In this document: one piece after another, positions 16,833 through 62,342 of the stretch | Layout: each line of letters opens with the position of its first letter | Numbering within the stretch: the stretch's first letter is position 1 | Source of the DNA: Thermoguttaceae bacterium | GTDB taxonomy: Bacteria; Planctomycetota; Planctomycetia; Pirellulales; Thermoguttaceae | Direction: 5' to 3' | DNA: 64,000 nucleotides | Assembly: GCA_963665265.2 (NCBI GenBank) | Contig: OY762224.2 | Span: forward strand, 3,255,456 to 3,319,455 | Program-made: the position numbers and the translations under genes | The notes under the pieces: generated by a model | Seen by the model: only the letters and a program-made list of their open reading frames with translations | Database searches by the model: none | What the model was told of the DNA's origin: nothing

Positions 16833-16840
16833 CTAGCACA

Positions 16841-17238: not shown

Positions 17239-17296
17239 CGTTTTACGAGGTCCGCTCTAAGTTGAAAAGCCTCCAACTACGGAGAAGCCACGACAA

Positions 17297-30737: not shown

Positions 30738-30892
30738 CACGATTGCATTAATTCAAGTCCCCGTAAATCGGCGCCCCAATTCGCTCGATTTGCGAACTCA
30801 GTTGAAATTCGTCGTGAGCGAGCTTGTGTTTTTCGTATTCAGGGAAATGAGTCTGAATCATGTGGTCTTCTTCGGATTGGAACCGCCTTATC
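30738..30892 (-). pseudogene. hemerythrin gene remnant (C-terminal part only)
   Basis: About 155 bp aligns closely with 29325-29480 of the intact gene. It translates FQSEEDHMIQTHFPEYEKHKLAHDEF and then diverges and stops. It abuts the response-regulator stop codon. Confidence 0.6.
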
Positions 30893-41773: not shown

Positions 41774-42904
41774 GGGAAATCGCCTGCGAGGTTAAATATA
41801 TTTGTACATACAACCAACACTTCCTGTCAAGCCATTTGGCGACCTGCATGCCGAAAATATATTCCGATTTCGTTGTGTGATTGTCGTTGAATCACCGAAA
41901 AAAATGGTCCAGAGGTTGGGTGGACAAGAAACCAAAAGCCCTCCAGGCAGGGAAGAACCCGGAGGGCGATGCGATATTGACTGTGCGACAACTGACCGAC
42001 ATTGCCTCAGCCAAGCAGGAGAAATACCACCCAAGGCTAACATCGTCATAAATTACAAACTTCTGCCAGATAAAAATGCGACAACCGTTTTGGAAGGAAA
42101 AGGCAATATTGATCATATTTTTCATGCAAATTGGGAAGCGACAAATTTGTAACATCGCTAGAAAATCCGAGGTGGAAGATGTTGAAGCCTTATAAAAACA
42201 ATGTTCGCCTGACGATCTATACTTGAAATACAGAGCAGCACATCGTGCGGAGGGCAAAATGGATGAAATCTACCTGAAAGCATTGGAAGATTACGGTCAA
42301 TGGCTTTGCGAACAGATCGACAATCTCGTCAAGCTGGAAGGTGATTCTCACGAAACGGCGTTGAGATTCGCCGCCAGCGTCGTAAAAGAAGCGGGGGACC
42401 GTGGTCTGAAGCTGGGCTTAACCGGTCTCTATGAAGCGACCCGTGTCAATTCTGACATGCTTGACGCAATTCCGGCTCGGTTTGGTCTTGAATGTTGTCT
42501 TGCCAAAGCACGCAATCCCCAAAAAGAAGTCAACTTTTCCGTCGACGAATATGTTCGGCAAAATCATAGATGGCAGGGACCGACATGCCGTGGATAACCG
42601 ACGCCGCTACGGTCCGGCTGCCCCGACCCGGAACGTAGCGTGTGTTTCGCAGAATTAGCGATAGATGCCCCCCAGCAATTTCGTCCACATTGATATCGGC
42701 ATCGACGGTGACAGCATGTTGTCACCGCCGGGGGAAATTTTGCATTTTTCCCAAAAAAGCCGCCAGTTAACATTTTTGTCGCAGGCGTCGTCGATTTCAT
42801 GTAGATTCCGAAATATTTTGACGGCTCAACGTGAAAAAACGTAGAGTAGATTATGTCGCCGCAGTCGTTCATGCAGTTATCGAAACTGTTGATTCCGGAC
42901 GTCC

Positions 42905-43242: not shown

Positions 43243-44073
43243 TTATTGCAGTCCGGCGGCTTTGAAGCACTCCATGTACTTCTTATCGACCCCGACGAGG
43301 TGCTCCTCGAACCACGTTTTTATGAAGTCCAACACGTCGAGTCCTAATAGATCGCTTCCCCATTTTGCTCGATTCTGCAAATCAAGAACTTTGCCGACAA
43401 ACTCGTCATGGGCTTGTTTATGCTCCGCATATTCGGAAAAGTGAAAGAGAAGCATGTAATCTTCTTCGGTTTTGAAGTGTCGCTGCGTGTAATCGGCTAA
43501 TTCTGCGAGAATTCGTGTTGTTTCCGGACTTTGCACGTTCTCCGTCATAGAAGCATGTAAAGTATTGATCATTTCAACGAGTTCTTGATGTTGCGAATCA
43601 ATTTCCGCAACGCCGACGGAGAAATCGTCCGTCCACTTCACATAAGCCGACGAGTCTTCGGCTATCGCCGCTCGTTGTTGCTTTATTATCCATTGCGAAT
43701 GCTTTTTGTCCGTGCCGAGAATGTGTCCCCTCAACCAAGCATGAAGAATCGGCAACGATTCGAGTTCGGAAATCGTTTCCCCTCGTTTCATTTTCTCCAG
43801 GACGCCATGCAACTTTTTCTTAAACCCATCATGGGCGAAATGGTGTGCATGAAGACCGGAGCAGCCGAATTGCTTCATGTAGTTCTCTTCCATTTTGCAG
43901 TGCATGTCCCAGAAGTCAATCAATTGGGAGAGCAGTTTTTCGGTAACCTGCTTTTCCTTATGAGTAGCCATTGCGTCGTTCAAGTCGTCAAACAATTTGA
44001 ACAGCTCTCGATGTTGCGAATCGATTTCAGCAACGCCGACGGCGTAATCATTTGACCATTTAATAAGAACCAT
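43243..44073 (-). CDS. tandem (two-domain) hemerythrin-like protein, paralogue of 29231-30073
   Basis: MVLIKWSNDYAVGVAEIDSQHRELF... plus a second WTDDFSVGVAEIDSQHQELV domain. ATG at 44073 follows GAGG. Confidence 0.8.
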   Translation of the reverse strand: MVLIKWSNDYAVGVAEIDSQHRELFKLFDDLNDAMATHKEKQVTEKLLSQLIDFWDMHCKMEENYMKQFGCSGLHAHHFAHDGFKKKLHGVLEKMKRGETISELESLPILHAWLRGHILGTDKKHSQWIIKQQRAAIAEDSSAYVKWTDDFSVGVAEIDSQHQELVEMINTLHASMTENVQSPETTRILAELADYTQRHFKTEEDYMLLFHFSEYAEHKQAHDEFVGKVLDLQNRAKWGSDLLGLDVLDFIKTWFEEHLVGVDKKYMECFKAAGLQ

Positions 44074-44544
44074 TGCACTCACCTCAGCAATCTCTCCACC
44101 GGCGAACAGCCCTTGCTACAAGCTACGTTTTGAACAAGCGGGTTCCGTTTTGCCGCAATATGCCGATTGTCAGGCTTCTGGTAAAACCGACGGTAACATT
44201 TTCGTCAGGAAAAACGAACTCAACTCACTTATGCAAATATAGACTGGCAAAATTGTTGGCGTCGGCGGCGTGCTTCATTAACCGCCCCGGAGACGGGTGC
44301 GACCCCTTGTTGGTCGTATCGACGATGTGCATGAACGGCATTTTCGGAATGACTAGACCTCGTAAGTGACTTTCGGCGGAATATTTTCCCTGGCGAATCA
44401 CGTAGGCGTCTTCGGTGAAAGCGCCAAATCGTTCAGATAAAAAACTCTGTGACTATTAGCTTGGAGAATGAAAAAGAACAACCTAGATTGATTGTGTTCG
44501 CCGTTTGCTTGCCTCATCGAAACCACTGTCGTCGAATGCTCCTC

Positions 44545-46719: not shown

Positions 46720-48327
46720 CTAATTGAGTTTAGGGGGAGCTGGAGGCAGATGGTTAGGTCGAACCGGCAACAGGATTGTAAACGTCGTTCCTTTGTCGAC
46801 TTCGCTTTTAAAAGTCAACGAGCCGCCGTGTTTATCCACTACGATGGAGTATGCTATTGCCAGTCCTTGACCGCTCCCCCGTCCGACTTCCTTCGTAGTA
46901 AAGAACGGATCGAAGATTCGTTCCCGATATTCCGACGGGATGCCGCATCCCGTGTCTTCGATCTCAATGCGAACATTTTTGCCTTCATGTCTTGTGCGTA
47001 TGCGGACTCGACCTTTTTCGCCTGTCTTTGCCACGACTTCGGCGACGGCATGGGCGGCGTTCATTAATAAATTCAAGAAAACTTGATTCAAATCCCCTAC
47101 ATGACAGAACACTTGCGGCAGCGGTCCTAAATCCGTTTCAACGTTCGCAATGTTATTAAACAAATTTCCCGCCACGGTAAGCGTCGTCGTTAGAGCGTGA
47201 TTTAGGTCCGCTGGGGTCTTCTCACGCCGGTCAGGATGGGCGAAATCCTTCATTGCCCGAACTATCCTGGAGATGCGAGAGACTCCGTCAAAAGCGTCAT
47301 CGAATGCTGCGGGGATGCTTTGTTCGAGATAACCTAGATCTATGTCCTGTTCCGCTTCAACGATCGCCTTCACAGTTTCTTCATGACCTGGTGCGGCGGT
47401 GAATGTCCCAAGAGCTTGTTTGTACTTAGCCAAAATTATTCTGAAATCATCATAGCCGCTACGGAGGAAGTTCAGGTTGTCACCGACAAATTGCGTCGGC
47501 GTATTAATTTCATGGGAGATGCCTGCGGCGAGTTGCCCGACGGCCTCTAGTTTGTTCGCTTGTCTTAGCTGCATCTCCGCCTGCTGGCGACGTTCCATTT
47601 CCAACTTCAGTTCCTCTTCCGCCTCCTCACGTTGATGTAGCGCCTCCAAAAGCTGATCCGTCTGCCTCTTCAATTGTTCATTGAGTTGTCCAAGCTGAAT
47701 GTTTCGGTCCTTGACCTCTTGCTCCAGCGAAACCCTCGTGGTGACGTTCCGGCATACTTCGACGCCGGCGATGACGTTCTTATCTTTGTCAAAGATAGGA
47801 AAACAGGCGTTTTCCCAAAACGAGGTCGTTCCGTCAGCGCTGGCGGCGGCACGTAACACCAACGTCGCTTCTCCCGTGCGAATCGCTTTCGCCACCCCGC
47901 AACCTTCGCACATCTCGGTTCGCTTCTCGTAGCAAACGTAGCACTTCTCTCCAAGATGACTGCCAAACACCTGCTGCATGGCGTCATTTTGATAAATGAT
48001 GTTGAAATCTCGATCCTGAACGGTAATGCCGTCGGCAAGATTATGTAAAATGTGTTCTCGAAGAAGGAATGCGTTTTCTGCGTGGAGGAGATTTTTCGAG
48101 GCTTCCGTTACGTCGAGCGGAACCAGAAACAAGTCAGACACGCAGATTGCCCGTTTATGTTCGAGCGATACGATTCGATCCCGCAGTTTTTGATTTTCCT
48201 CGTCTAATCCAAGAATGAGTTGACAAGCCTCCTCAAGAGCCTCGCCGCAGGGGGGCTTTGTTGAGGCAGCTTGAGCGACAAGTCGCTTCGTTACTGTCTG
48301 GATGTCAGTGTGAGAAAAATCGTTCAT
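46720..48327 (-). CDS. cytoplasmic PAS sensor histidine kinase with a 4-Cys motif in the PAS domain
   Basis: PAS segment containing CYVCYEKRTEMCEGC, AGISHEINTPTQFV H-box, and NLLMNAAHAV...DTGCGIP...GSGQGLAIA. Confidence 0.8.
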   Translation of the reverse strand: MNDFSHTDIQTVTKRLVAQAASTKPPCGEALEEACQLILGLDEENQKLRDRIVSLEHKRAICVSDLFLVPLDVTEASKNLLHAENAFLLREHILHNLADGITVQDRDFNIIYQNDAMQQVFGSHLGEKCYVCYEKRTEMCEGCGVAKAIRTGEATLVLRAAASADGTTSFWENACFPIFDKDKNVIAGVEVCRNVTTRVSLEQEVKDRNIQLGQLNEQLKRQTDQLLEALHQREEAEEELKLEMERRQQAEMQLRQANKLEAVGQLAAGISHEINTPTQFVGDNLNFLRSGYDDFRIILAKYKQALGTFTAAPGHEETVKAIVEAEQDIDLGYLEQSIPAAFDDAFDGVSRISRIVRAMKDFAHPDRREKTPADLNHALTTTLTVAGNLFNNIANVETDLGPLPQVFCHVGDLNQVFLNLLMNAAHAVAEVVAKTGEKGRVRIRTRHEGKNVRIEIEDTGCGIPSEYRERIFDPFFTTKEVGRGSGQGLAIAYSIVVDKHGGSLTFKSEVDKGTTFTILLPVRPNHLPPAPPKLN

Positions 48328-48514
48328 TTACAGACCCGCCATTTGAACGGACATTACAATATTCCGCTTCAAAACCATACGTTAGAATAATCAGCGGAAA
48401 TGGCGTGTTTTTGGTGCGAACAAACATGCGGAGACGTTTTGATTGAGTCGTTAGCGTTGCATTTCGTTCATCACAAAGATCATGTGATTGGAGCCAACAA
48501 AACTTCGCCAAGAA

Positions 48515-48618
48515 ATAATAAAGCCTGTTAGGAGGGGCAGGATTCCTAACAGGCGACTCGCAATTGGGCGGGGCGACGGAGCGGGGCAGGTGTCCGTCGC
48601 TAGAGTATTTCCACCCAA
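48515..48618 (-). ncRNA. structured small-RNA-like element, copy B
   Basis: On the minus strand GGATTGACAAAAA gives a -35 box (48648-48653). The outer stem is AUUGGGUGG/CCGCCCAAU. The inner hairpin GCGACGGA/UCCGUCGC has loop CACCUGCCCCGC. The terminator GCCUGUUAGG/CCUAACAGGC has loop AAUCCUGCCCCU and is followed by UUUAUUAUUU. Confidence 0.5.
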
Positions 48619-49054
48619 TGCGATTCATTCTTTTCTAACGAGTTTTTTGTCAATCCACGCTAGAAAAATCACATGTTTTTTGTCGTTTCTTGTGTTTAAT
48701 GGCGGGGATAGTCTGGTCAGGCAGGCTTTTTATATCAAATAGATTATGCGATACGTGTCCATCCACGTTTTGAGAAAATTCTAGTGGAGAACATGCCAAA
48801 GGAGCCGCAACTTTCCCGCCAACGACTTTTCGATTATCCCTGGATGCCGATCAAATGGCTCAACGCCGTCGTCAACTCTTCATTAACGTCCCTTCTGAAC
48901 CATCTCAGGAGATGTCAAAAGCATACTCGATTAGGGATGTTGCCGATTCGATTCATGCCGATTACCCGACCGTCTTTCCGACTTTCGTAAGGAGCGGTCT
49001 ATACTTGCGTAACCCGTTTGAACGATCCGACTATTAAAACGCCGCAACGAGCGA

Positions 49055-49612
49055 TTGATAAGAAGCCCCGCTCATGTGGATCAACCGCCTTTGGAGGAAT
49101 ACAGTCCTACCGTGTCTTCGATCACCCCGCACGAAATCGTTCGCAAAGCGATAGAAGAAGACGCAATCGATTTGCTTTTGCTTGGGAAGCAGGAGTATCG
49201 ATATCTTCCATACTGGTCCTCCGCCTACGGCGATACAGACTTGCCAGATTTGTTGGAGGCTCTGCACGGGGAGGCGAAGAGAAAACCTGAGTTGGAAGTC
49301 GAAGAATCTCTGACCTATGCAATTCAAAAGATTCTCAAGACATACGAGGGATTATTGCCGACGGCGGAGTGCATATTCTACGAGTCTTACCTGCGATCAG
49401 AATCGCTTTCATCGTTCAACTTGCCGCTTGAAGAAATCGCAGTCATGCTTCGAGACCAGATCGAAAAATATAAAATCAGTTTGTTTACGGACAAATCTGG
49501 ACGTGGCGTGTTGTGGAAAGACGGTCTTCTAGGGGTATTGAGGCAGTTGAACATTGTAACGCAAGAATTCGGCGGTCCGTCCTTCTTCGATGTTCCGCTT
49601 AGCGTATTCTAA
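49055..49612 (+). CDS. hypothetical protein
   Basis: 185-aa ORF. No family recognised. Confidence 0.4.
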   Translation: MIRSPAHVDQPPLEEYSPTVSSITPHEIVRKAIEEDAIDLLLLGKQEYRYLPYWSSAYGDTDLPDLLEALHGEAKRKPELEVEESLTYAIQKILKTYEGLLPTAECIFYESYLRSESLSSFNLPLEEIAVMLRDQIEKYKISLFTDKSGRGVLWKDGLLGVLRQLNIVTQEFGGPSFFDVPLSVF

Positions 49613-49780
49613 ACGACTCCATTCTCATCGTCTCGGCGTCCCGGCGGCAAATGGGGACTTTCTTGGTTCTCGGTTTGTTTACGGGGGATGCGGAATGTGT
49701 CGCACTTAACCAACATCTTCAGCGTTGATACTCAAGCAGAACGCCATTCATCTGGCGTTACCGTTAACGGTTCATCAAGA

Positions 49781-49889
49781 AACAAAAAAGCCCGTCGGCA
49801 GGGGCAGGTGCCGAACGGGCAATTCGCTATTGGGCGTGGTGCGACGGATCGGGGCAGGTGTCCATCGCTAATAGAATTAACGCCCAAGT
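49781..49889 (-). ncRNA. structured small-RNA-like element, copy C
   Basis: On the minus strand GGATTGACA (49918-49923), a 17-nt spacer and GAAAAT (49896-49901). The outer stem is UUGGGCGU/ACGCCCAA. The inner hairpin GCGAUGGA/UCCGUCGC has loop CACCUGCCCCGA. The terminator GCCCGU(U)CGGC/GCCGACGGGC has loop ACCUGCCCCU and is followed by U6. Confidence 0.5.
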
Positions 49890-50133
49890 TCTTGTATTTT
49901 CGTAGATGCTGTTTTTTTGTCAATCCCCACCGAAAATTGGCTCGTTTACTTCCAGTTGCCTTTTCTGACTTTCTGGTCAAATCGACGGTCGTAACTGGCA
50001 AAAGTATTCCGATTCTGCGGGCTTCCAGGGGAGCAGCAGACCGTTTTTCCGTCGCAGAGAAACGGATATAATGGCCGAATCTGATCTGAGAAAGTCAGCC
50101 TCAAAACATCGAGATCGAAAGGGACAGCGATTT

Positions 50134-51075: not shown

Positions 51076-51339
51076 ATTTCTCTCCTTATTCTTTAGGAGA
51101 GTAAGGAGGGAAAAAACTTGTGGAGATTTTTTGATTGCGGATTTGGTTTGTCCGAAAAATCTCGGAAACTCCGACTCATCCGCCGCACCATTATTCGCTT
51201 TCCCTCCAGGAATCTATCTCCCTCGTGGGGGCTATTGATTCCACCCCCCATACAGAAGTAAAATCGGGGGTTGAGGTGATTTTCATCTATACCAGAACCT
51301 TTTCTTATCTGGCAAATCTCAAACAGATAGGGGCTTGGC

Positions 51340-54300
51340 ATGAGAACTAATAAAGAGTTTTTTAAGACCTTGGGTGCCGAAAGAGCAAGATTCTTTCTGT
51401 GCGACCTTCATGTCCATAGCCCAGCTTCAAAGGACATGATCGAAGGCGAGAGGTTTGAAGCCCTCTCGGACGAGGAAAAAAAACGTCTTACCCTCGCAAA
51501 AGATTTGCGAGGGAATTTTCTTGAATACGAGACTCATTTGATTGAGCAAAACATATTTCCGATCGAAGACTACCTTGATCTGCTTATACGCCGGCGAGAC
51601 TCCGTTTTAAGCACGTTTCAGGCTTGTGAAGGTGATAAATGGGGAATCGTAGCTATAACCGACCACAACGTCTGCTCATATGCCTGCCGCCTTTCGACTT
51701 ACGCCTGGGACAATCGAAACTCTTCTCGATTAATTGTGCTCCCCGGAATTGAACTCGACGTTAGATTTCCCATTTCGGATGCTTCCATTTCTACTTCTGC
51801 TCACATTTTACTAATCTTCGCCCCAACAACTATCGATCGCAACATTGCATATGCAATTCGAGAGGCATCTGGGAATGACTGGGACTTTGGGCGACCGCTA
51901 GAAGTGAGTTCGCTTCAACATTTCGTGAACAGCATCCGACATCATTTGGTTTCTCCAGCAATTGCCATTGCTGCACACGTTGACACAGGAAAGGGAGTTC
52001 AGGCCCGCACTGTAAAGGCCATTGGCAAATCGTTCCGGGCACCAGAAGCGGAGTTTGCCCGCCTTTCCGGTGAGTTAGAAATTATGTCACTGAAGGGGCG
52101 AAACGATGTCTTGCCTTCGTGGGAGATGGTAGAAGTTAAGCAGAGCATTGAGGGCATCAAGGAAGAGATTGCAAACGAGAGTGAGATTCCGTTGAGGGTA
52201 CTGGAACTAATAGGCGGCTGCGGTTTTGATGGTCTTCAAGTCCACGACATATCTGCTGGGCGACACTATCGGAGACTTCATCGGTTCGAGCAGAAAATTG
52301 GTAGGGCTGTTCCCCTTATTTGTTCTGACGCCCATCGAATCGACGACGTGTTTGTATGTAAGAGCGGTGAAGTCCCCTTCATCAAGCTTTCAGATATCAC
52401 TGCCGACGACTCTCCCGAGAGGAAAAGTGTATGGGAGAATGCCGAAGTCCCATTTATGAAGCTTTCGAATCTTTCCAGCACCCGATCTCCAGAAGATGTG
52501 TTCCATGAGATTCGCACTCGGGGTATTCGATACGGAGAGACACGCTTTAGCGTCCAATCTCCTGGTGAAGTAACTTGCTGGATTTCCGGCATTGAAATTA
52601 TCCCCGATTCCCCAAAAGCAAAGACTTTTTGGCCATTTTCAGACACAGAATCCAACTCGTTTAACTTGTCGTTGTCTCGCAACCTCAACTGCTTGATAGG
52701 AGGAAGAGGCTCAGGAAAGAGTGCTGCAATAGAAGCCCTCTCGTTCGCCGCCCAGCCGAAGTTTCTTGAGGATCGAGATTCAGGGCCATTTGTTGATGAC
52801 TTCCGACGACGAGCCGACGCAACTATTTCCGGCTGCAATGTGCGATTGTGTTGGATTTGTCTGGATGAACAAGGAGCGTACCTGCAAAAACGTGCCATCT
52901 TTTCCACGAGATACTTCAACGAATCGGGGAGGCACCAATCAATCTCTTGTTCGGACATAGATAACAAAGAGATACCCTTGGTCTCACTTCCGATAGAGAT
53001 ATTTCGATTGCATGAAATTGAAGACCTGGTCGAGAAGCCAGAGCAACTCCGTGACCTCTTCGATAACCTCTGTGGTGAAGACGTTGCAGCAAGGACGAAA
53101 AAGATTACATCTCTCGTGGGGCAACTGCAAGGACAGAGAAAGGTACTAATTGGGATCGCAAAGGAAATCTGTCTGCTAACAAGAGAAGGCTCACCGTTGA
53201 GGGCTTATGCGTATCGCAAAATGCTGTATGACGCAGTTAATTCCAATGACGTTCGAGCCAAGTACGAACGTTTGGACGGAGCGGCAAAAGCCGCCGAGAT
53301 AGCGAAAACAGCAGAAGATAACTGGAAAACGCTTTACGATGAATTCGACCTTAAGGATAAAAAACGGCAGCTTGAGGACTTCTTCGTTAAAGTCGAGAAT
53401 GCAGCAACTGATTTCGATAAGAACCTTCTGCCCTTTTGTTCTCCGTTTGAAGATTTCGTCAAAGCCCCTGCTGACGGCGATGAAACCAGTAGGAACCTCA
53501 AAGCTCGGGTCATTGGGGCGGTCACGCAGCTTGATACCGAGCTATCGGCAGTAACGCAGGTTGCGGACAACGCCGGGAAGACTACCCTCGACGCCATTAA
53601 GATCGAGAGAGAAAAACTTGCTGGAGAAGGATTGCCCGTAGGTGGAAAGGAGCGTGAAGCAAAAAAACTAGAATTTGATGAATCTGTTCAGGCCCTTGAG
53701 TCCTACAAAAAGCAAGTCGAACTATGGACGCAAGAGATGCAATTAAGGAACGCTACGTTTGCATATCTTGAAGCCGAGTGTAGAGCTCGCACTGAAGAAC
53801 GAAAGAAGAAGGCGGCGGAGATCACAACAAAACTACGCCATGAGCTTGACCCAGGAACCCTTGTGATCGAAATAGATGCCCGGCCGATGGCAGATAAACG
53901 AGGATTGGCGGAATGGATTAATGGGCATCTATACCCCCCAAATACGAGGTCAAAAGATGTTCGCACGGACGCACTCATTGAAGACGGTTTGATGCCAAAG
54001 ACGCTCCGAAATGCTTTGCTTGGAGAAGAAGAATTTCCTTGTGTCGAACGAGCTAGTGTAACAACAGGGCAAATCGATAAAGCGGCGACCGCTCTTTTTG
54101 TCGGGCATTGTTGGGGAATGCGACGGCTTCCTCCAGAGAAACAGCAAACCGAAGTGTCTCCGGAGCAATGGACTAGTTTACCAGAAGATATTCGAAACGG
54201 GTTACTTTGCTTCCCCGTCGTTCCTGACACTGATGGAAAACTAGATGAGAAGCGGCTCAGTAATGTCTTGGAAATTGACGAAATTATCTTCGACGACCTG

Positions 54301-54765
54301 CCGGAAATCCGGTTAATGGATCGACCAGGTGAAATGACGACGGCACGCCCTCTGCCAGAGCTTTCCCCCGGACAACGTTGCAGTGCAATTCTTCCCATTC
54401 TTCTTTTGAACGGAACGTGCCCTTTGGTAATAGATCAACCCGAGGACAATTTGGACAATCGTCTGATCCGTGAGGTTGTAGTTAAAATACTTGCCTCAAT
54501 CAAGCTGAAAAGGCAAGTTATCATCGCTACCCATAACCCCAATCTGCCGGTCTTGGGGGATGTTGAACAAGCCATTGTCTTACGGGCAGTTGAAGACAAT
54601 AAGTGCCAATTACAGGTCACTGGCAATTTGGATGACCCAAAGGTAGTGCGGCTTATCACCGAAGTGATGGAGGGCGGTCGTGAGGCATTCCAGTACCGCC
54701 ACTCCATTTATCAACCGTATTGGGAAGGACCAGTTGCCACAGAAGATGGAAGGTCGGAAGCTTGA
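51340..54765 (+). CDS. PHP-domain phosphoesterase fused to an ABC/SMC-like ATPase with a long coiled-coil insert
   Basis: N-terminus FFLCDLHVHSPASKD...AITDHN...GIELD...AAHVD...SDAH (PHP metal ligands). Walker A is LIGGRGSGKSAAIEAL at about residue 470. About 400 aa are coiled-coil-like. The signature-like segment is LSPGQR, Walker B is LVIDQPEDNLD, and the H-loop region is IIATHNPN. Confidence 0.75.
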   Translation: MRTNKEFFKTLGAERARFFLCDLHVHSPASKDMIEGERFEALSDEEKKRLTLAKDLRGNFLEYETHLIEQNIFPIEDYLDLLIRRRDSVLSTFQACEGDKWGIVAITDHNVCSYACRLSTYAWDNRNSSRLIVLPGIELDVRFPISDASISTSAHILLIFAPTTIDRNIAYAIREASGNDWDFGRPLEVSSLQHFVNSIRHHLVSPAIAIAAHVDTGKGVQARTVKAIGKSFRAPEAEFARLSGELEIMSLKGRNDVLPSWEMVEVKQSIEGIKEEIANESEIPLRVLELIGGCGFDGLQVHDISAGRHYRRLHRFEQKIGRAVPLICSDAHRIDDVFVCKSGEVPFIKLSDITADDSPERKSVWENAEVPFMKLSNLSSTRSPEDVFHEIRTRGIRYGETRFSVQSPGEVTCWISGIEIIPDSPKAKTFWPFSDTESNSFNLSLSRNLNCLIGGRGSGKSAAIEALSFAAQPKFLEDRDSGPFVDDFRRRADATISGCNVRLCWICLDEQGAYLQKRAIFSTRYFNESGRHQSISCSDIDNKEIPLVSLPIEIFRLHEIEDLVEKPEQLRDLFDNLCGEDVAARTKKITSLVGQLQGQRKVLIGIAKEICLLTREGSPLRAYAYRKMLYDAVNSNDVRAKYERLDGAAKAAEIAKTAEDNWKTLYDEFDLKDKKRQLEDFFVKVENAATDFDKNLLPFCSPFEDFVKAPADGDETSRNLKARVIGAVTQLDTELSAVTQVADNAGKTTLDAIKIEREKLAGEGLPVGGKEREAKKLEFDESVQALESYKKQVELWTQEMQLRNATFAYLEAECRARTEERKKKAAEITTKLRHELDPGTLVIEIDARPMADKRGLAEWINGHLYPPNTRSKDVRTDALIEDGLMPKTLRNALLGEEEFPCVERASVTTGQIDKAATALFVGHCWGMRRLPPEKQQTEVSPEQWTSLPEDIRNGLLCFPVVPDTDGKLDEKRLSNVLEIDEIIFDDLPEIRLMDRPGEMTTARPLPELSPGQRCSAILPILLLNGTCPLVIDQPEDNLDNRLIREVVVKILASIKLKRQVIIATHNPNLPVLGDVEQAIVLRAVEDNKCQLQVTGNLDDPKVVRLITEVMEGGREAFQYRHSIYQPYWEGPVATEDGRSEA

Positions 54766-54836
54766 GTATCCAAGCTTCCGCTACACGAGCTGATAGGCCG
54801 CCAACCACGGCGTTGCTTAGCCTTGAGGATATTCAC

Positions 54837-55322
54837 ATGCCATTTGAAAAAGAATTTACAATACGGACGGCGACCTTCAATGAAGTTGGTTGGTTTTTTC
54901 GCAGTGCTTCCCAACAGGATTGGAATGGCATTGTTCCAGCTTTTATCGACGATACACGGCTCGAACTCTGCGATGGTTTTTCTGTGGCAGAATACCAGGG
55001 TGAAGTCATCGGGGCTGTCGCAACTTCGTCAAAGGGCATGGATGGAAAGTCCTTGCCGACAATCGTGAACCTTTACGTCTTGCGTAAATTCACCAAAAAA
55101 GGCGTTGGGTTACGTCTACTCGTGGATGCGATGAAACGTTTGCTTTCGCCAGAAAGCCCCAAGGTATACTGCCTGGCAATCACAAGAGCGATGGTGAGAA
55201 CAATCGAGAAGCTTCCACAGGAATTAAGGGATTGCTTGGAATACAAGGTTGACCTCAGCGAAGATTTCGTGGCAGCATGGGAGTCGCTGCAAAAAATCAA
55301 GGGGATTGATAGTTGCGAATAA
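54837..55322 (+). CDS. GNAT-family N-acetyltransferase (probable)
   Basis: 162 aa: EVIGAVATSS...VNLYVLRKFTKKGVGLRLLVDAMKRL resembles the GNAT acetyl-CoA binding segment. Confidence 0.55.
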   Translation: MPFEKEFTIRTATFNEVGWFFRSASQQDWNGIVPAFIDDTRLELCDGFSVAEYQGEVIGAVATSSKGMDGKSLPTIVNLYVLRKFTKKGVGLRLLVDAMKRLLSPESPKVYCLAITRAMVRTIEKLPQELRDCLEYKVDLSEDFVAAWESLQKIKGIDSCE

Positions 55323-55512
55323 ACCGGACATGAGCAGAGGTCGAATTCAAAGACGATTCCGATGAGTGGTCCGCCGTCGCCGTGTTTGCTATGGATGTCA
55401 TCAACGACAGTGGATCCGTTCTCGGCGATTACGGAAGCGTTGAAGAGGCAATATTGATACCAATAAGTCGGCTTTTATATCGCACAAATCGATTTACCGA
55501 AGGACACATTAC

Positions 55513-57201
55513 ATGACACGCATTCAGATCAAGGGTGGTGAATATCCAATTGGGAAAATTTTTGGAAAGGATTTTGTCTTCCGAATCCCGTTGTATCAAC
55601 GTCCATACGCATGGCAACAAGACCAAACAGAGGAGCTTCTGGATGACCTTCTTTCTTTCGTTGGTGACGGGAATGAGCCAGTTGATGACCTTAATCCCTA
55701 TTTTCTCGGCAACATCGTGGTCATTAAGGAAGACCATAAGCCTGATGCCGACGTAGTAGATGGTCAGCAACGACTGACAACCCTGGCGATTCTTCTGTCC
55801 GTGATACGTTCACTGACAGACGGAGATTTTGCCAAAGGACTTACGGAGTTCATCTACGAGAAGGGAAATCCCGTCGAGGAGACCCAAGACCGTTTTCGGC
55901 TGACTCTTCGGGATCGTGACGCCACGTTCTTTCAAGATTATATCCAGAAGGAGGGGCAGTTGCAGGGACTCTTATCGCTTGATGAGGTAAAGCTAAGTGA
56001 CAGCCAGAAGAACATTCGCTCAAATACAGCCTCTCTTTTTAAACGCCTTAAGGAATTTCCGAAAGACGCCTGCAAACGCTTGGCTCAGTTCGTAATCAAG
56101 CAGTGCTTCTTGGTGGTTGTATCGACTCCAGACTTCGAGTCAGCCTATCGCATCTTTACCGTCCTGAACAGTCGTGGGCTTGACCTTTCACATGCCGATA
56201 TCCTGAAGTCGGAGATCGTTGGCAAAGTCTCATCGGAGGAACAAGATAAATACGGTAAGCGTTGGGAAGATACGGAAGAACTGTTGGGCCGAGAGTCGTT
56301 CGCCGACCTTTTCTCGCATATTCGGACGGTCTATCGAAAGTTGAAACTGAAGGGAACTGTCCTGGCAGAGTTCAGGCAATATGTGATGTCAGAAGTCAAG
56401 GATTCCAGAACCCTGATTGATGATGTAATCGTCCCATACGCCAACGCATTCTCGGATATCAGAGAAGCCAATTACGAGAGTTCAAAGGGAGCAGATGATG
56501 TCAATACTCTTCTGAAGTGGCTTGGCGAGATCGACAACGCTGACTGGTTGCCTTCGGCCATGCTCTACATGTCACAAAATACAAATGCACCTGATGAACT
56601 TCGGCTGTTTTTCACCAATCTTGAACGTCTTGCCGTGATGCAGATGCTTACGAGATCAAGCATTAACGAACGAATCGAGCGATATGGGCGTTTAATAAAT
56701 GCCATACAGAAGATGGCTGATCTATATGCTGAGGAATCGCCGCTCAAAATCTCAAGGGACGAACAAGAGAGAATGCTCTGTGTTCTTGATGGAGACGTGT
56801 ATAACCTTCTCCCCAAAGTACGTAAATACGTTATGCTTCGGCTTGACTCCGCTTTGTCTGGAGGAGGTGCGACTTACGATCATGGGGTCTTTAGCATCGA
56901 GCATGTTCTTCCTCAACAACCCAAGGCTGGGAGTGTGTGGGAGTCATGGTTTCCTGATTCTGCTGAACGTGAGCAACTCGTTCATCGTCTTGGAAATCTT
57001 GTCATATTGAGCCGACGGAAGAATAGTAGTGCAAGCAATTACGATTTTGACAAAAAGAAGGCAAGTTACTTCACGAAAGATGGTGTTTCACCATTTCAGA
57101 TTACGACCCAGGTGGTTAGCGAAGAGACATGGACGTCCGTTGTAATCAAACGTCGCCAAACGGAGCTTGTCACCAAACTAAAGTCAATATGGAACCTGTA
57201 G
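55513..57201 (+). CDS. GmrSD-type DUF262/DUF1524 protein (type IV modification-dependent restriction candidate)
   Basis: N-terminus IPLYQRPYAWQQDQTEELLDDL...VVDGQQRLTTL (DUF262/ParB-like). C-terminus IEHVLPQ...HRLGNLVILSRRKNSSASNYDF (DUF1524 His-Me finger). Confidence 0.85.
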   Translation: MTRIQIKGGEYPIGKIFGKDFVFRIPLYQRPYAWQQDQTEELLDDLLSFVGDGNEPVDDLNPYFLGNIVVIKEDHKPDADVVDGQQRLTTLAILLSVIRSLTDGDFAKGLTEFIYEKGNPVEETQDRFRLTLRDRDATFFQDYIQKEGQLQGLLSLDEVKLSDSQKNIRSNTASLFKRLKEFPKDACKRLAQFVIKQCFLVVVSTPDFESAYRIFTVLNSRGLDLSHADILKSEIVGKVSSEEQDKYGKRWEDTEELLGRESFADLFSHIRTVYRKLKLKGTVLAEFRQYVMSEVKDSRTLIDDVIVPYANAFSDIREANYESSKGADDVNTLLKWLGEIDNADWLPSAMLYMSQNTNAPDELRLFFTNLERLAVMQMLTRSSINERIERYGRLINAIQKMADLYAEESPLKISRDEQERMLCVLDGDVYNLLPKVRKYVMLRLDSALSGGGATYDHGVFSIEHVLPQQPKAGSVWESWFPDSAEREQLVHRLGNLVILSRRKNSSASNYDFDKKKASYFTKDGVSPFQITTQVVSEETWTSVVIKRRQTELVTKLKSIWNL

Positions 57202-57243
57202 GTTGCTGACTTTCGACGTCAAGTTGGAGGGTAGTGTGATCCC

Positions 57244-57519
57244 ATGAAACTCTTCCGCTACCGAAAACCGTCCCTCAAAACCCTTCTCGGCGTGACCAAA
57301 GCCAAGAAGCGATTGAAAAAAGAACTCGGTATCACCGACGCCTTGAAACCATTTTGATGATGGACGAACAAGAAACGGAAGATCAAACGTGATGTCGGTT
57401 ACGAATCGGACGCCGGTCGGTTGATACGAAATGGATTGCCGAAGCCGGGAGGGTGTTTGGTGGTGATTTTGGTTGGAGTCGGCGTATTGGTGATGGCGGC
57501 GGTGGTGATGGCTAGGTGA
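57244..57519 (+). pseudogene. small ORF interrupted by two consecutive in-frame TGA codons
   Basis: MKLFRYRKPSLKTLLGVTKAKKRLKKELGITDALKPF-TGA-TGA-WTNKKRKIKRDVGYESDAGRLIRNGLPKPGGCLVVILVGVGVLVMAAVVMAR*. One frame is kept throughout and there is a C-terminal hydrophobic helix. Confidence 0.3.
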
Positions 57520-57535
57520 AAAAGGAGGTGCATTA

Positions 57536-58669
57536 ATGACCGATAACATTTTTATAATTCAGGATGATGGAAAACTTGTTGAAATGGGTGAAAAAGTCTA
57601 CGACTCCGAGGCTCTGTTGCAAGAACTTCTTGCAAATTACCCGAAGTTGTTGAGCGGCAGTCAAATAGATATGGATTCTCCTCGACGTTGGTTGCTTATT
57701 AAACGAGAGATGGGAATCCCCGCCGAGGAGTTCGGCGGTGGTCGGTGGTCGGTGGATCACCTTTTCCTTGATCAAGACGGCATTCCCACTCTAATAGAAG
57801 TAAAAAGAAGTAGCGACACTCGTATTCGCCGAGAAGTCGTTGGGCAAATGTTGGATTACGCAGCCAACGCCGTCGTCTATTGGCCTGTTGAGCAAATCCG
57901 AATCGAGTTCGAAAAAAACAGTGCCGATCCCGAACAAACGCTTGCTGATTTCTTAGGCGAAGACGGCGATTTGGAAGATTATTGGCAACGTGTCAAAACC
58001 AATCTTCAAGCTGGTAGAATACGGATGCTCTTCGTGGCCGACTGCATTCCGCCGGAACTTCGGCGGATTGTCGAGTTTCTAAACGAACAGATGGACCCTG
58101 CTGAAGTCTTAGCCGTTGAAATCAAACAGTATGTTGGCGAGGGCATGAAGACTTTGGTGCCACGCATCATAGGGCAAACAGCCGAGGCAGAAAAGAAACA
58201 TCGCACACCCTCGGCGTGGTCCGGATACTGGTTTGTGAACGTTGGAGACGGAGACCATAGGAATTGGGATGACTGCATGAAGCACGGTTTTTTAAGCGCT
58301 GGGCAGGGGAAAATTTATGGCGAGGCGATGAAGAAGCTTAAGGTCGGTGACAAAGTGTTTGCGTACATGAAAGGAAACGGCTATGTGGGATTCGGCAGTG
58401 TGACGCAGGAAGCGGTCATGGCGAAGGATTTCAAAGTCGACGGGCAATGCCTTTTTGATCTCCCTTTGGTTCAGCCTGGGATAAAGAATAATGCCGACAA
58501 CCCCGAGCTTTCAGAATGGCCCATAGGGATTAAATGGGAACAGACTTATCCGAGAAATCAAGCAAAGACGTTTTCAGGAGTATTTGCCAACCCGAACATC
58601 GTCTGCAAAATCAGGGACGAACGAACGGTAAAGTTTCTGAAACAGCAATTTGGTATCGAGGAAGAGTAG
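57536..58669 (+). CDS. NucS-like PD-(D/E)xK nuclease domain fused to an EVE/PUA-like C-terminal domain (prediction)
   Basis: AGGAGG SD. VDHLFLDQDGIPTLIEVKRSSDTRIRREVVGQMLDYAAN has a D...E-x-K layout. The C-terminus is YWFVNVGDGDHRNWDDCMKHGFLSAGQG...LKVGDKVFAYMKGNGYVGFGSV. Confidence 0.5.
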   Translation: MTDNIFIIQDDGKLVEMGEKVYDSEALLQELLANYPKLLSGSQIDMDSPRRWLLIKREMGIPAEEFGGGRWSVDHLFLDQDGIPTLIEVKRSSDTRIRREVVGQMLDYAANAVVYWPVEQIRIEFEKNSADPEQTLADFLGEDGDLEDYWQRVKTNLQAGRIRMLFVADCIPPELRRIVEFLNEQMDPAEVLAVEIKQYVGEGMKTLVPRIIGQTAEAEKKHRTPSAWSGYWFVNVGDGDHRNWDDCMKHGFLSAGQGKIYGEAMKKLKVGDKVFAYMKGNGYVGFGSVTQEAVMAKDFKVDGQCLFDLPLVQPGIKNNADNPELSEWPIGIKWEQTYPRNQAKTFSGVFANPNIVCKIRDERTVKFLKQQFGIEEE

Positions 58670-58767
58670 TGCAAGGCGAGGTTTCGCAGTCAAAGCGATT
58701 GCAATGAAAATACAAAAGCGCTCGGCGGCGGTGGTGGCGAAGTAAGGCATTTTTCGGAGTAAGTCAA

Positions 58768-59808
58768 ATGTTAAGAATTGATCGTCAACAAAAACGGTTT
58801 GAATCACTTCCGGCACCGGCCCTCGCTGACGTAGCTTTTAGGGAAGTCGGCGATCTGCAAAAGTGCATAGCCAACAATCCAGACGCATTTTTTGGTGAAA
58901 TTGGGCAAAAGCTCTTTTTACTAAAGACCGAAGTTCATCCTTCCCAGACGGTGCAGGATCGAATTGATCTGCTGGCACTCGATGAAGAAGGAAACTCCGT
59001 CGTCATTGAACTAAAGCGGGACAACCACAAGCTACATTTGCTCCAAGCGATCTCCTACGCAGCCATGATTGCTCACTGGCAGCCGAATGACTTTTTGGAA
59101 TTACTGGATGAAAGCGGCGTAGAAAGATTAGAAAACTTTCTTGAGGAAGACAAGGAAAACATCAATCGTCGGCAAAAAATCATTCTAATCGCCGAAGCTT
59201 TTGATTATTCCGTTTTGGTGAGTGCCGAATGGCTAAGCGAGAACTTTGGAGTGGACATCGTATGTTGTCGCCTTTCTTTATCCAAGGATGAACAAACGGA
59301 TACCGAATATCTTGTTTGCACAAACGTATTTCCGGCACCAGAAATTGCACGACAAGCAATCGCTCGTGGGCGAATGAATCCCCCCACGAGCGAAATCAGA
59401 TGGTCCGACTGGGATACAGCCCTCTCCGACAATGACAATCCGGCGGTTACCTCTTACTTTCGACAAGCGTTGGTAACGCAGGAGAGTAATCTAGGAAAAC
59501 GAATATTGTGGTATCGCATCAACGATAAGCGGTATTGGTTTGTGTCCGTTCGAAATGGTTTCGCATACGCCTGGCAATATGCTCGTTTTGCGGGCGACAT
59601 TCAATATTGGCAAGAACGTTTGAGTCATCCTGAAGATGTTTGCCCTGTAAAAGCCGAAAAATCTTTACGCTTTCGTTTATATACAGAAAAAGACTTCGAG
59701 AATTTCCATAAGGCTGCCACGAACGACCTTCAAACGGTCCAATGGCTCAGTTCCGCTCCCGATAATGAGACCGATCAAGTTGAGTCGGACTTGGATGAAC
59801 AGCCGTAG
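58768..59808 (+). CDS. NucS-like PD-(D/E)xK nuclease-domain protein with an uncharacterised C-terminal domain
   Basis: RIDLLALDEEGNSVVIELKRDNHKLHLLQAISYAAM, the same motif architecture as the upstream gene. Confidence 0.5.
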   Translation: MLRIDRQQKRFESLPAPALADVAFREVGDLQKCIANNPDAFFGEIGQKLFLLKTEVHPSQTVQDRIDLLALDEEGNSVVIELKRDNHKLHLLQAISYAAMIAHWQPNDFLELLDESGVERLENFLEEDKENINRRQKIILIAEAFDYSVLVSAEWLSENFGVDIVCCRLSLSKDEQTDTEYLVCTNVFPAPEIARQAIARGRMNPPTSEIRWSDWDTALSDNDNPAVTSYFRQALVTQESNLGKRILWYRINDKRYWFVSVRNGFAYAWQYARFAGDIQYWQERLSHPEDVCPVKAEKSLRFRLYTEKDFENFHKAATNDLQTVQWLSSAPDNETDQVESDLDEQP

Positions 59809-59832
59809 AACAAATCAGAAAACCAACTAATC

Positions 59833-60750
59833 ATGCCCATCCCTGACTATCAAGGTTTCATGTTGCCGTTGCTCAAATTCATTGCAGACGACAAAGAGCA
59901 TAATATTCGAGACGTGGTCGCCGGATTGTCCGACGAGCTTGGTTTGTCCGAAACCGAACGGCTTCAAATGTTGCCGAGCGGACAGCAAGCGGTTGTTCCC
60001 AATCGAATCGGCTGGAGTAGAACTTATCTCAAAAAGGCGGGGCTGCTTTCCAGCCCGAGAAGAGGATTCGTGCAGATTTCGGATGTAGGAAAGGAAGTGT
60101 TGAAAGAAAACCCGATCAAAATCGACTATCATTTCCTGAAACGTTTCCCTTCATTTCTCGAATTCGTCCAACCTTCTGTTGCAGATGGCGACGAATCTCC
60201 TGCCGCTACCGAAGTCGAAGACACCCAAACTCCTGACGAAGTTCTTGAATCGTCCTACCAAAGCCTTCGAGACGCTCTCGCAGACGATTTATTGGAACAA
60301 GTGAAATCCTGTTCGCCCGCCTTCTTTGAACGACTGGTGGTCGATTTGCTGGTCGCAATGGGATATGGCGGATCGTTGGCGGACGCCGGACAAGCTATCG
60401 GGAAAACGGGCGACGGCGGCATCGACGGAATTATCAAGGAGGACAAGCTCGGTTTGGACGTGATTTGCATTCAAGCCAAACGCTGGGAAGGTACGGTCGG
60501 TCGACCTGTGGTTCAAGCCTTTACCGGAAGTATGGAAGGGGTGCGAGCCAGAAAAGGCGTGCTTTTGACGACCGGTTCGTTTTCAAAGGACGCTGTGGAG
60601 TACGTCGAGCGAATTGAGCGGAAAATCGTGTTGATCGACGGAAAGCGTTTGGCGGAATTGATGATCGACTATAACATCGGCGTGACGACGAACAGAACCT
60701 ATTTGATCAAGAAACCGGATTCGGACTATTTCGCCGAGGACGAGGCGTGA
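59833..60750 (+). CDS. mrr: Mrr-family restriction endonuclease (Mrr_N winged helix plus Mrr catalytic domain)
   Basis: MPIPDYQGFMLPLLKFIADDKEHNIRDV...NRIGWSRTYLKKAGLL and FERLVVDLLVAMGYGG...GDGGIDGII...VICIQAKRW. Confidence 0.85.
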   Translation: MPIPDYQGFMLPLLKFIADDKEHNIRDVVAGLSDELGLSETERLQMLPSGQQAVVPNRIGWSRTYLKKAGLLSSPRRGFVQISDVGKEVLKENPIKIDYHFLKRFPSFLEFVQPSVADGDESPAATEVEDTQTPDEVLESSYQSLRDALADDLLEQVKSCSPAFFERLVVDLLVAMGYGGSLADAGQAIGKTGDGGIDGIIKEDKLGLDVICIQAKRWEGTVGRPVVQAFTGSMEGVRARKGVLLTTGSFSKDAVEYVERIERKIVLIDGKRLAELMIDYNIGVTTNRTYLIKKPDSDYFAEDEA

Positions 60751-60904
60751 CGGTGAACTAGTGAAATATCTAGCGTGGATGAAAGGCAAGGCATACTACG
60801 GCAACGGAAATTGGATAAGATTATCAACTCCGTTTCAGTGAAATCATAGAGAACCTTCGATAAGAAGTTGTCGCAAAGTCGAGCGGATTTAGGAGGAAAT
60901 TTGC

Positions 60905-61516
60905 ATGACTATAGAAAAGGAAATTCGGTTCAGGGAAAAAACCTACCAAATCACGATTGAAGACGATTTTGTCGAACCTCCTGTGTGGATGGAAGTCAAA
61001 TCATGTCTTGTGCCTTCAGGGCAAATAAAAAACGAGCTTGATCGACGTTTTCTGGACCAATATGCAGCGAAATTACTTCAGTGCTGGGGAAACGACCATT
61101 TAGAAAGTTTCTTATCCTTACTGCACGACATGGGTGCTTCTGTTGAAGAACTACACAAACTTGGTCTCGACTTTCTAGTTGAAACCGAGGATAGCAGAAC
61201 TTGGTTTTTCCGAAGTCCGATTCACGCAATGGGTTACAAGGTTGGGAAGAGTGGAATTTCGGAAGACGAACGTCATGCAATCTTACGAGAAGCGTTTCTC
61301 GGAACAATTCCAAATGTTGGTGCCGAAAAGTATATGGTTACATGGGGACTCCCTGGTTCTGAAAAGCGTTTGGCGGCAATTGCACACCATATTCGTTTCA
61401 AATGCCGAGGCAATCCGACTACGGATCTTTCTGTAGCCAATGCTGATTGGCAAAGCGATCTGAAGTGGCTGAAAGCCACATTTTATGATGGACATTTCAC
61501 ATTTCCGTGGATTTAG
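60905..61516 (+). CDS. hypothetical protein
   Basis: 203-aa ORF preceded by AGGAGG. No family recognised. Confidence 0.45.
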   Translation: MTIEKEIRFREKTYQITIEDDFVEPPVWMEVKSCLVPSGQIKNELDRRFLDQYAAKLLQCWGNDHLESFLSLLHDMGASVEELHKLGLDFLVETEDSRTWFFRSPIHAMGYKVGKSGISEDERHAILREAFLGTIPNVGAEKYMVTWGLPGSEKRLAAIAHHIRFKCRGNPTTDLSVANADWQSDLKWLKATFYDGHFTFPWI

Positions 61517-61604
61517 CACTCGCAGGAACAGATTTTTTACGTTCGGCTCATTCGTTTGCCTGTAAAAATTATCACCGTGATCGCTAAATCATCACGCCAC
61601 TCCC

Positions 61605-62342
61605 ATGAAACACTTACTCCTCCCCATCCTGCTCATCGTCCTCGTCGTTTCCTCCTGCCAAGCCCAGCAGCAGACGGCAACTTCTTCAAATCCGTCCTCG
61701 GTCGAAGTCTATTTCAGCCCCAAGGGCGGTTGCACGGAAGCTGTCGTTCGGGAATTAGACTCAGCCAAGAAGACAGTTCTGGTTCAAGCCTATAGTTTCA
61801 CCTCGGTTCCTATCGCCAAAGCCCTCGTCGAAGCTCATAAACGTGGAGTTGACGTCCGAGTGATCTTGGACAAAAGCCAGCGAACGGAGAAATACAGTTC
61901 CGCCGACTTCGTTCAGCACGCCGGCATTCCAGTTTGGATCGACGCCAAACATGCAATTGCTCACAACAAGATCATGGTGATCGATTCGCAAACGGTCATT
62001 ACCGGCAGTTTCAATTTCACCAAAGCCGCTGAGGAGAATAACGCAGAGAACTTATTGGCGATCCGTTCCCCGGAATTGGCTGCGAAATACGCCAACAACT
62101 GGAAAGTTCATTTAGAACATGCTGAAAAGTACGAAGGAAAAGGCGAAGTTGACGCTCGCTCCGACGATCCGCAGGCTGACGCCAATATCGGAGGATACAT
62201 AGCTTCCAAGAATTCAGAAATCTTTCATAAACCTGACTGCAAATCCGCCGCCAAGATTTCGTCGAAGAATCTAGTGCATTTTGACACGAGGGACGAAGCG
62301 ATTCAGGCAGGGAAGAAACCGTGTGGAAATTGTAAGCCGTGA
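61605..62342 (+). CDS. phospholipase-D-family (Nuc-like) nuclease with signal peptide and C-terminal Ada-type Zn-binding domain
   Basis: MKHLLLPILLIVLVVSSCQA signal or lipobox-like sequence. HKD motif AIAHNKIMVIDSQTVITGSFNFTKAAEENNAENL. C-terminus FHKPDCKSA...FDTRDEAIQAGKKPCGNCKP. Confidence 0.75.
   Translation: MKHLLLPILLIVLVVSSCQAQQQTATSSNPSSVEVYFSPKGGCTEAVVRELDSAKKTVLVQAYSFTSVPIAKALVEAHKRGVDVRVILDKSQRTEKYSSADFVQHAGIPVWIDAKHAIAHNKIMVIDSQTVITGSFNFTKAAEENNAENLLAIRSPELAAKYANNWKVHLEHAEKYEGKGEVDARSDDPQADANIGGYIASKNSEIFHKPDCKSAAKISSKNLVHFDTRDEAIQAGKKPCGNCKP

Follow-up and report, generated by a model that had tools for sequence, protein, structure and literature searches.

What are the three short, mutually similar segments that lie near 30.5, 48.6 and 49.8 kb in a 64-kb stretch of contig OY762224.2 from a planctomycete, Thermoguttaceae bacterium? 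The stretch as a whole is called the window here, and all coordinates are positions in it. A preliminary description had read the segments as a family of structured RNA genes, each running from a promoter to a terminator. Our analysis, carried out in silico and built on this single window, suggests that the three segments (copies A, B and C), together with two looser relatives (D and E), form an island-borne orphan family of independently transcribed candidate small RNAs (sRNAs) whose C-rich loops may pair with G-rich sites in messenger RNAs (mRNAs). We give this reading a probability of about 0.5; the part that makes them transcribed sRNA genes is held with more confidence, and the mechanism with less.

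The three segments can indeed be aligned with one another. Column identity among them is 76% over ~200 nucleotides (nt) with the promoters included and 81% over the transcript, and pairwise BLAST joins A with B (75% identity over 139 nt, E-value 5e-19), B with C (81% over 95 nt, E-value 5e-19) and A with C (71% over 91 nt, E-value 5e-6). The similarity extends from ~60 nt before the predicted start as far as the U-run, and the flanks beyond are unrelated, as had been noted; since it spans only promoter and transcript, the duplicated unit is the promoter plus the transcript, ~165 base pairs (bp). All three units read on the minus strand. Folded alone, each copy gives the parts in the order proposed for it, namely an outer stem, an inner hairpin with a 12-nt loop, a short linker, a G+C-rich terminator hairpin of 10-11 bp and a U-run; the inner hairpin has the consensus GCGAYGGA/UCCKUCGC. 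The predicted starts coincide with the foot of the outer stem, giving predicted RNAs of ~100-108 nt. The parts of the three copies are as follows (bit scores are from a covariance model described below):

30437-30582, minus: whole unit of copy A, predicted transcript ~30543-30437, 109 bits.
30575-30582 and 30551-30556, minus: -35-like CGGACAAG and -10 GATAAT of copy A.
30487-30542, minus: 5' domain of copy A, outer stem UGAGCGGAU (30542-30534) with AUUCGCUCA (30495-30487).
30523-30516 and 30503-30496, minus: inner hairpin of copy A, GCGACGGA with UCCUUCGC, a single C-U mismatch.
30515-30504, minus: inner 12-nt loop of copy A, UACCUGCUUCGG, a degenerate version of the motif.
30439-30476, minus: terminator of copy A, stem GCCUGUUAGG/CCUAACAGGC, loop AAUCCUGCCCCG with CCUGCCCC at 30463-30456, then U6.
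48513-48653, minus: whole unit of copy B, predicted transcript ~48620-48513, 124 bits.
48653-48648 and 48632-48627, minus: -35 TTGACA and -10-like AAGAAT of copy B, 15-nt spacer.
48563-48619, minus: 5' domain of copy B, outer stem AUUGGGUGG (48619-48611) with CCGCCCAAU (48571-48563).
48600-48593 and 48580-48573, minus: inner hairpin of copy B, GCGACGGA with UCCGUCGC.
48592-48581, minus: inner loop of copy B, CACCUGCCCCGC, with CCUGCCCC at 48590-48583.
48513-48554, minus: terminator of copy B, stem GCCUGUUAGGA/UCCUAACAGGC, loop AUCCUGCCCC with CCUGCCCC at 48541-48534, tail UUUAUUAUUU.
49781-49923, minus: whole unit of copy C, predicted transcript ~49889-49781, 118 bits.
49923-49918 and 49901-49896, minus: -35 TTGACA and -10 GAAAAT of copy C, 16-nt spacer, 10/12 match.
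49830-49887, minus: 5' domain of copy C, outer stem UUGGGCGU (49887-49880) with ACGCCCAA (49837-49830).
49868-49861 and 49848-49841, minus: inner hairpin of copy C, GCGAUGGA with UCCGUCGC.
49860-49849, minus: inner loop of copy C, CACCUGCCCCGA, with CCUGCCCC at 49858-49851.
49784-49820, minus: terminator of copy C, stem GCCCGU(U)CGGCA/UGCCGACGGGC with one bulged U, 8-nt loop exactly CCUGCCCC (49808-49801), then U6.

One stem had to be redrawn. The outer stem of copy A was first given as GAGCGG/CCGCUC; the homologous partner is AUUCGCUC(A), adjoining the inner hairpin, and CCGCUC sits in the linker. The fold z-scores of the copies are -2.4 (A), -6.4 (B) and -4.7 (C).

The promoter hexamers quoted in the preliminary description are present in the sequence: TTGACA-16-GAAAAT in C, called by a consensus promoter scan with 10 of 12 positions matched, TTGACA with AAGAAT in B, and GATAAT with a poor -35 in A. 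The -35 regions of B and C share 14 identical nucleotides (GGATTGACAAAAAA), and all elements carry terminators. The features expected of an independent sRNA gene, a promoter of its own and an intrinsic terminator with no conserved open reading frame (ORF), are thus found here, the promoters of A and D being weak or uncalled. We infer from these signals that the units are transcribed.

B and C carry the motif CCUGCCCC in each of their two apical loops, A in the terminator loop only, just as it was first read, in the sequence and in the folds alike. The loops read (CA/AU)CCUGCCCC(GC), both loops of copy C reading CACCUGCCCC, and GGA is confined to the three uppermost pairs of the stems, GGA/UCC. 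The window has six occurrences of CCTGCCCC where 0.85 are expected (a ~7-fold excess, not attained in any of 100 shuffles), five of them in the predicted loops of A, B and C. A scan of all terminator-like hairpins showed that the other good terminators in the window carry unrelated loops, so the C-rich loop is a trait of the family and not of terminators in this genome. What defines C-rich-loop sRNAs such as sX13, 6C, RsaE/RoxS and RepG, a run of at least four C in an apical or single-stranded loop on a stable stem, is seen in both loops of B and C, in the terminator loop of A and in that of E, the loops being of 8-12 nt and the stems of 8-11 bp.

Do the stems vary as paired structures would? 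Read in the register of their own folds, B and C differ by five two-sided stem changes with pairing kept: G-C to U-A in the outer stem and, in the terminator, U-A to C-G (twice), A-U to G-C and G-C to C-G. Another two pairs change on one side, between G-U and G-C, and the only loss is that of a terminal pair; in the unpaired 5' spacer the two copies differ at about half of the positions. A and B show one double change, G-C to A-U in the outer stem. In a model-fitted alignment of A to E, 90.6% of cells pair, and 11 two-sided pairs are counted against 4.8 +/- 1.6 in shuffles and 1-4 in slid controls, a count that includes D and E and comes from an alignment fitted to the structure, which leans towards it. 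We regard the covariation in the stems of A, B and C as suggestive, not established.

The covariance model, built from A, B and C and run over the whole window with filters off, recovered its three sources and two weaker new matches:

41929-42040, minus: element D, 29 bits, E-value ~1e-5.
17138-17242, plus: element E, promoter TTGACA-16-TAGATT at 17138-17165 (10/12 in the scan), model match 17172-17242, 24.5 bits.

Element D has in common with B the 5' UUGGGUGG, a linker CAAU..UCGC.UCGCC and the lowest part of the terminator stem, but not the middle. Its terminator is GCCCUCCGGGU/GCCUGGAGGGC with a pyrimidine-rich loop, UCUUCCCU, and it folds at -42 kcal/mol on the minus strand against -28 on the other. 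BLAST found no similarity between D and the copies within the window; D is probably a diverged relative. Element E looks like a short sRNA-like gene that has its terminator module in common with the family: its predicted transcript, ~70 nt from ~17172, has a single-stranded CCCC at the 5' end, a hairpin (17181-17199) and a terminator (17204-17232) with loop UCGCUGCCCCG, in which CUGCCCC lies at 17216-17222, followed by U6. This terminator is 84% identical over 31 nt to that of copy A, and element E has a fold z-score of -6.1. We treat D and E as looser relatives of A, B and C. The family of three as first described stands, while D and E, and the genomic island in which all five lie, had been overlooked.

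Is the family a known one? At gathering thresholds, Rfam 15 (4227 models) gave only two tRNAs in the whole window, and at a permissive E <= 10 nothing relevant over A-E, so that these scans support the view that the element matches no named RNA family. The best permissive match was a sub-threshold one of element E (17166-17248, plus) to suhB/mmgR, with 17.4 bits against a threshold of 41 (E-value 0.23). suhB/mmgR is an alphaproteobacterial sRNA with a C-rich motif, and the match probably reflects common design, not homology. A search of genome contigs with the pattern GAYGGAYACCTGC-N35-60-CCTGCCCC returned 82 matches, which proved on inspection to be chance or coding matches without exception and of which none was positive with the model, in a collection that evidently lacks the source genome. 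In metagenome contigs the pattern GA..CCTGCCCC..TC-N30-44-CCTGCCCC gave at least 120 matches, of which those listed were all chance or coding repeats; the first 100 of them were re-scored with the covariance model and none was positive, true matches beyond those listed being possible. Five DNA-pattern scans of viral contigs found nothing related, the loci from one of them having been scored with the model as well, and blastn against plasmids and phages found no match to the elements. We also looked beside homologues of neighbouring genes. For the histidine kinase that follows B, orthologues reach no more than 63% identity, and none of the four loci scanned with the model has an element; relatives of a RuvB-like gene of the island are 70-79% identical, and none of three loci has a model match or a C-rich terminator loop; no related loci for the RuvB-like protein were found in viral contigs. 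Among the papers searched, none describes the motif in bacteria or such sRNAs in Planctomycetes. As far as these searches reach, A-E are an orphan family. The model also gave one weak match in an Agrobacterium sp. contig (1521-1647, plus; 15 bits, E-value 0.55), on a hairpin-plus-terminator unit that has nothing to do with the pattern match there and is probably an unrelated alphaproteobacterial sRNA.

What would such RNAs do? On the reading that we favour, a sigma-70-type promoter would drive a transcript of ~100-108 nt, starting at the base of the outer stem and containing the inner hairpin and the intrinsic terminator. Both apical loops would present the same C-rich (CA)CCUGCCCC as seed regions, which would base-pair in trans with single-stranded G-rich (GGGGCAGG-like) mRNA sites, typically near start codons, and the pairing would block translation or change mRNA stability. 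Two equivalent loops and several gene copies could give additive dosage, or separate signal inputs through separate promoters. The context GGA-CACCUGCCCC resembles the 3' end of the 16S ribosomal RNA, GGAUCACCUCCUU (the rRNA itself lies outside the window), a likeness that fits loops occluding ribosome-binding sites.

A seed-pairing role is proposed for the loops because sRNAs of the same design, sX13 and 6C, work in this way. In Xanthomonas, the three apical C-rich loops of sX13 act on G-rich motifs near start sites, and the RNA represses mRNAs with G-rich motifs near the start codon independently of Hfq (PMC3771888). The likeness lies in a short RNA of stable stem-loops, with CCCC/CCCCC apical loops in sX13 and C-rich loops here. 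There is no similarity in sequence or by covariance model, however, and sX13 has three hairpins and a single gene, whereas in the present family hairpin 1 sits within an outer stem, the terminator provides the second C-rich loop, CCUGCCCC is the motif and several paralogues lie in an island of a planctomycete. The C-rich loops of the 6C sRNA bind targets without a chaperone (PMC6486639). 6C (B11, Actinobacteria) also has two C-rich hairpin loops, which there bind G-rich single-stranded mRNA directly; it differs from the present family in phylum, in loop sequence (runs of C), in architecture and in being a single conserved core-genome gene instead of an island-borne multigene family, and Rfam gave no match to it at E <= 10. 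RepG (HPnc5490) of Helicobacter pylori, a further RNA of this design, uses a C/U-rich terminator loop as a seed that pairs with a G-rich stretch of an mRNA leader. A terminator loop as seed, here proposed, is its likeness to our elements; its sequence shows no relation to theirs, it has one gene copy and its target is a homopolymeric G-repeat. Sibling sRNAs in several copies with an identical seed in common are known from Rhodobacter (CcsR1-4, "cuckoo") and from Vibrio (Qrr1-5). The Qrr genes adjoin, and are controlled by, a two-component-type regulator and use sigma-54 promoters and Hfq; the CcsR loops are C-rich and anti-Shine-Dalgarno-like, and their genes stand in tandem and are transcribed together with an ORF that precedes them. 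Like these, the present elements are several paralogous copies with one motif; they have neither sequence nor structure in common with CcsR or Qrr, and no Rfam match.

A number of observations weigh against this reading. The consensus scan did not call the promoter of copy B, because the spacer before AAGAAT is only 15 nt, nor that of copy A, which has a good -10 and a poor -35, and it called none for D. The plus strands of A, B and C fold about as well as the minus strands (-41.9, -54.5 and -42.6 kcal/mol, copy B giving -51.3 on the minus strand). With only one or two G-U pairs per copy, this weakens the earlier argument that wobble pairs fix the orientation, which is instead given by the promoter and the U-run. 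As for the covarying stems of the preliminary description, compensatory changes can be seen by hand, but formal tests with three sequences are not significant: in an unfitted MAFFT alignment, two double-change pairs remain, which 121 of 500 shuffles equal, the number being low because register shifts hide most of them. Homologues outside the window were found neither in the genome, metagenome (among the matches listed), viral, plasmid and phage searches nor at the orthologues of neighbouring genes. Nor did the window give a target signal: it has no perfect GGGGCAGG in a sense mRNA, GGGGCAGG-like sites are not enriched where genes start, the duplexes computed for 40 gene-start regions have energies that do not surpass the background, and GGGG lies within -40 to +20 of the start in one of these 40 genes (51340-54765). 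Window genes use GGAG-type ribosome-binding sites, to which CCUGCCCC is an imperfect match.

The gene at 51340-54765, which encodes a 1141-amino-acid SMC/AbiEii-like ATPase, carries GGGGCUUGG / AUAGGGGCUUGGCAUG at its ribosome-binding site. In its leader (51255-51342, plus) GGGGGUUGAGGUG lies at about -75 and AUAGGGGCUUGG at the ribosome-binding site, both partly complementary to CACCUGCCCC, with a duplex energy of -16.9 kcal/mol that is not exceptional. As a candidate target it is a lead, not evidence.

Could the loops serve a protein and not an mRNA? The RNAs might be sponges whose twin loops, closed by GGA...UCC in A and B, are sites for a dimeric RNA-binding protein that they titrate as CsrB, RsmY and RsmZ do, which we consider unlikely. 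Having the same extended motif in both loops (CACCUGCCCC twice in C) resembles selection for one recognition element, not for two target-specific seeds, and no complementary mRNA sites were found in the window. The several paralogues and the repeated loop motif recall CsrB/RsmY/RsmZ, as does a possible control by adjacent two-component systems, with genes for a PAS histidine kinase (31525-33534) and a LuxR/NarL-type response regulator (30891-31727) immediately preceding A and those for two histidine kinases immediately following B. Against this, the RNAs lack the multiple A(N)GGA loop motifs of CsrB/Rsm RNAs and CsrA ligands, GGA being in stems only; two sites per RNA are few, the first loop of copy A has decayed and a CsrA gene was not seen in the window. 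The neighbourhood yielded no candidate RNA-binding protein either: ORF185, between B and C, has no match in Pfam, NCBIfam or the PDB, and its AlphaFold model (pLDDT 42) is unusable.

The elements might instead be cis-acting leaders or attenuators, in which a conditional terminator is read through to express the downstream gene and the loops are a handle for a termination or antitermination factor. Four of the five elements are followed by a gene of like orientation: A lies 364 nt ahead of a hemerythrin gene, B 191 nt ahead of the two kinases, D 156 nt ahead of a MarR gene and E 55 nt ahead of an uncharacterised ORF (17297-17968). A simple scan found no separate promoter between the terminators and these genes. 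Four of five is not significant, however, the scan is insensitive enough to have missed the promoters of A and B themselves, and the genes could have promoters of their own in the 150-360 nt before their start codons. The terminators are strong (10-11 bp, G+C-rich, U6), and no alternative antiterminator pairing is evident. Copy C, with B the best preserved, converges on the ORF at 49055-49612 and has no gene downstream to regulate, so that it cannot be a leader and is read as a stand-alone gene. We consider attenuation as unlikely as the sponge.

A bolder form of the protein-binding idea, which we think somewhat less probable than the sponge as such, makes the RNAs one half of a new island-borne post-transcriptional system: the twin CCUGCCCC loops, GGA/UCC-closed, would bind a dimeric protein recognising C-rich loops, giving a Csr-like titration with a new motif and a new protein. 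If true, sRNA genes each wired to a different sensor that the mobile element introduced (two-component, hemerythrins, MarR) would let the island reprogramme its host.

It is more doubtful still that the elements are non-functional or selfish repeats, either of the kind of repetitive extragenic palindromes (REP) or miniature inverted-repeat transposable elements (MITE), or decaying duplicates of a terminator region spread in the island. Their density is high (five in the 47-kb island and not one in the remaining 16.7 kb), A and D seem to have decayed in part, and B alone is flanked by a 17-nt inverted repeat. Yet no terminal inverted repeats or target-site duplications are common to the copies, flanking inverted repeats common to A, C, D and E not having been found, and the promoter belongs to the unit, which agrees with the preliminary reading. 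Stem changes are compensated while spacers drift, the loop motif is kept exactly, and the plasmid, phage and viral collections hold nothing similar.

Other candidates were rejected. Generic terminators of upstream genes are ruled out by the elements' own promoters and by the absence of the loop motif from other terminators. A riboswitch, a tRNA-like or transfer-messenger RNA, a retron, and CRISPR or type III antitoxin repeats find no Rfam match, tandem array or associated genes. The dual-hairpin targets of ANTAR proteins have hexaloops with A1/G4 and a second hairpin that competes with a terminator, whereas here the loops are of 8-12 nt with another consensus, the terminator itself forms the second hairpin and no gene lies downstream of C. 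Small protein-coding genes can be set aside almost entirely: mechanical ORFs do overlap B (48305-48628, 107 amino acids) and C (49732-50001, 89 amino acids) and have the peptide SDGHLPRSVAP in common, but indels of 1, 2 and 1 nt between B and C inside the conserved region exclude a shared reading frame, as the preliminary description held, no start codon or ribosome-binding site is common to them and the substitutions track base pairing, not codons.

Read as sRNA genes, A-E make up a new candidate family, as yet unconfirmed, of a functional kind, the C-rich-loop sRNAs, that is already known. We know of no planctomycete sRNA with a known mechanism; the family is an easily testable candidate, since it offers several copies, a seed motif that is plain to see, and defined promoters and terminators. 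If the reading is true, the principle of pairing C-rich loops with G-rich sites extends to another phylum. The Planctomycetes-Verrucomicrobia-Chlamydiae (PVC) group has 8 distinct annotated sRNAs, against 345 in Proteobacteria (PMC9029176, Table 1).

Where did the family come from? The G+C content of the window is 53-56% up to ~16 kb and 47-49% from there to its end, and the left edge of the low-G+C island is marked by a tRNA gene:

16759-16833, plus: tRNA-Val gene.

This gene is the likely integration site, and no att repeat of it was found within the window. Element E stands at the island edge, 340 nt past the tRNA-Val gene. Since the family is located in this tRNA-Val-linked island, it probably arrived with it or expanded inside it. 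The island contains, in order, a tyrosine integrase (22485-23462), a 154-amino-acid ORF, the RuvB-like AAA protein (23958-24932) and ArdC (26098-27003). The order integrase, RuvB-like protein, ArdC also occurs in an unrelated metagenomic element, which indicates that the RuvB-like protein is an element gene and not a housekeeping ruvB. Chemotaxis (MCP/CheW) and two-component genes and two paralogous double-hemerythrin proteins are also found in the island, and a defence cluster (51340-62342) adjoins B and C, comprising the SMC/AAA_21 (AbiEii-like) ATPase, GmrSD (55513-57201), Mrr (59833-60750) and a PLD nuclease with an Ada zinc-binding domain (61605-62342). Placed beside sensor kinases, hemerythrins and defence genes, the RNAs could be horizontally acquired riboregulators that tie island sensing to host expression.

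The two double hemerythrins (29231-30073 and 43243-44082, both minus) are 63% identical paralogues, and among 5.8 billion proteins no orthologues were found except each other. A 95-nt fragment at 30805-30899, just upstream of the promoter of copy A, is 86% identical to the interior of the first hemerythrin gene, a sign of local rearrangement or duplication near A. The inverted repeat at copy B, 48473-48489 (ACAAAGATCATGTGATT) with 48667-48683 (AATCACATGTTTTTTGT), is 88% complementary and brackets the copy exactly from promoter to terminator; chance, a site for a regulator or past mobility could each account for it. Outside the island, the TPR protein gene at 7531-8925 has internal repeats with periods of 114 and 228 nt (7806-8727), which are ordinary coding repeats. 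At the left end of the window, a second integrase (848-2200, plus) abuts a tRNA-Met gene (2160-2233, minus), which suggests another integration hotspot or a remnant.

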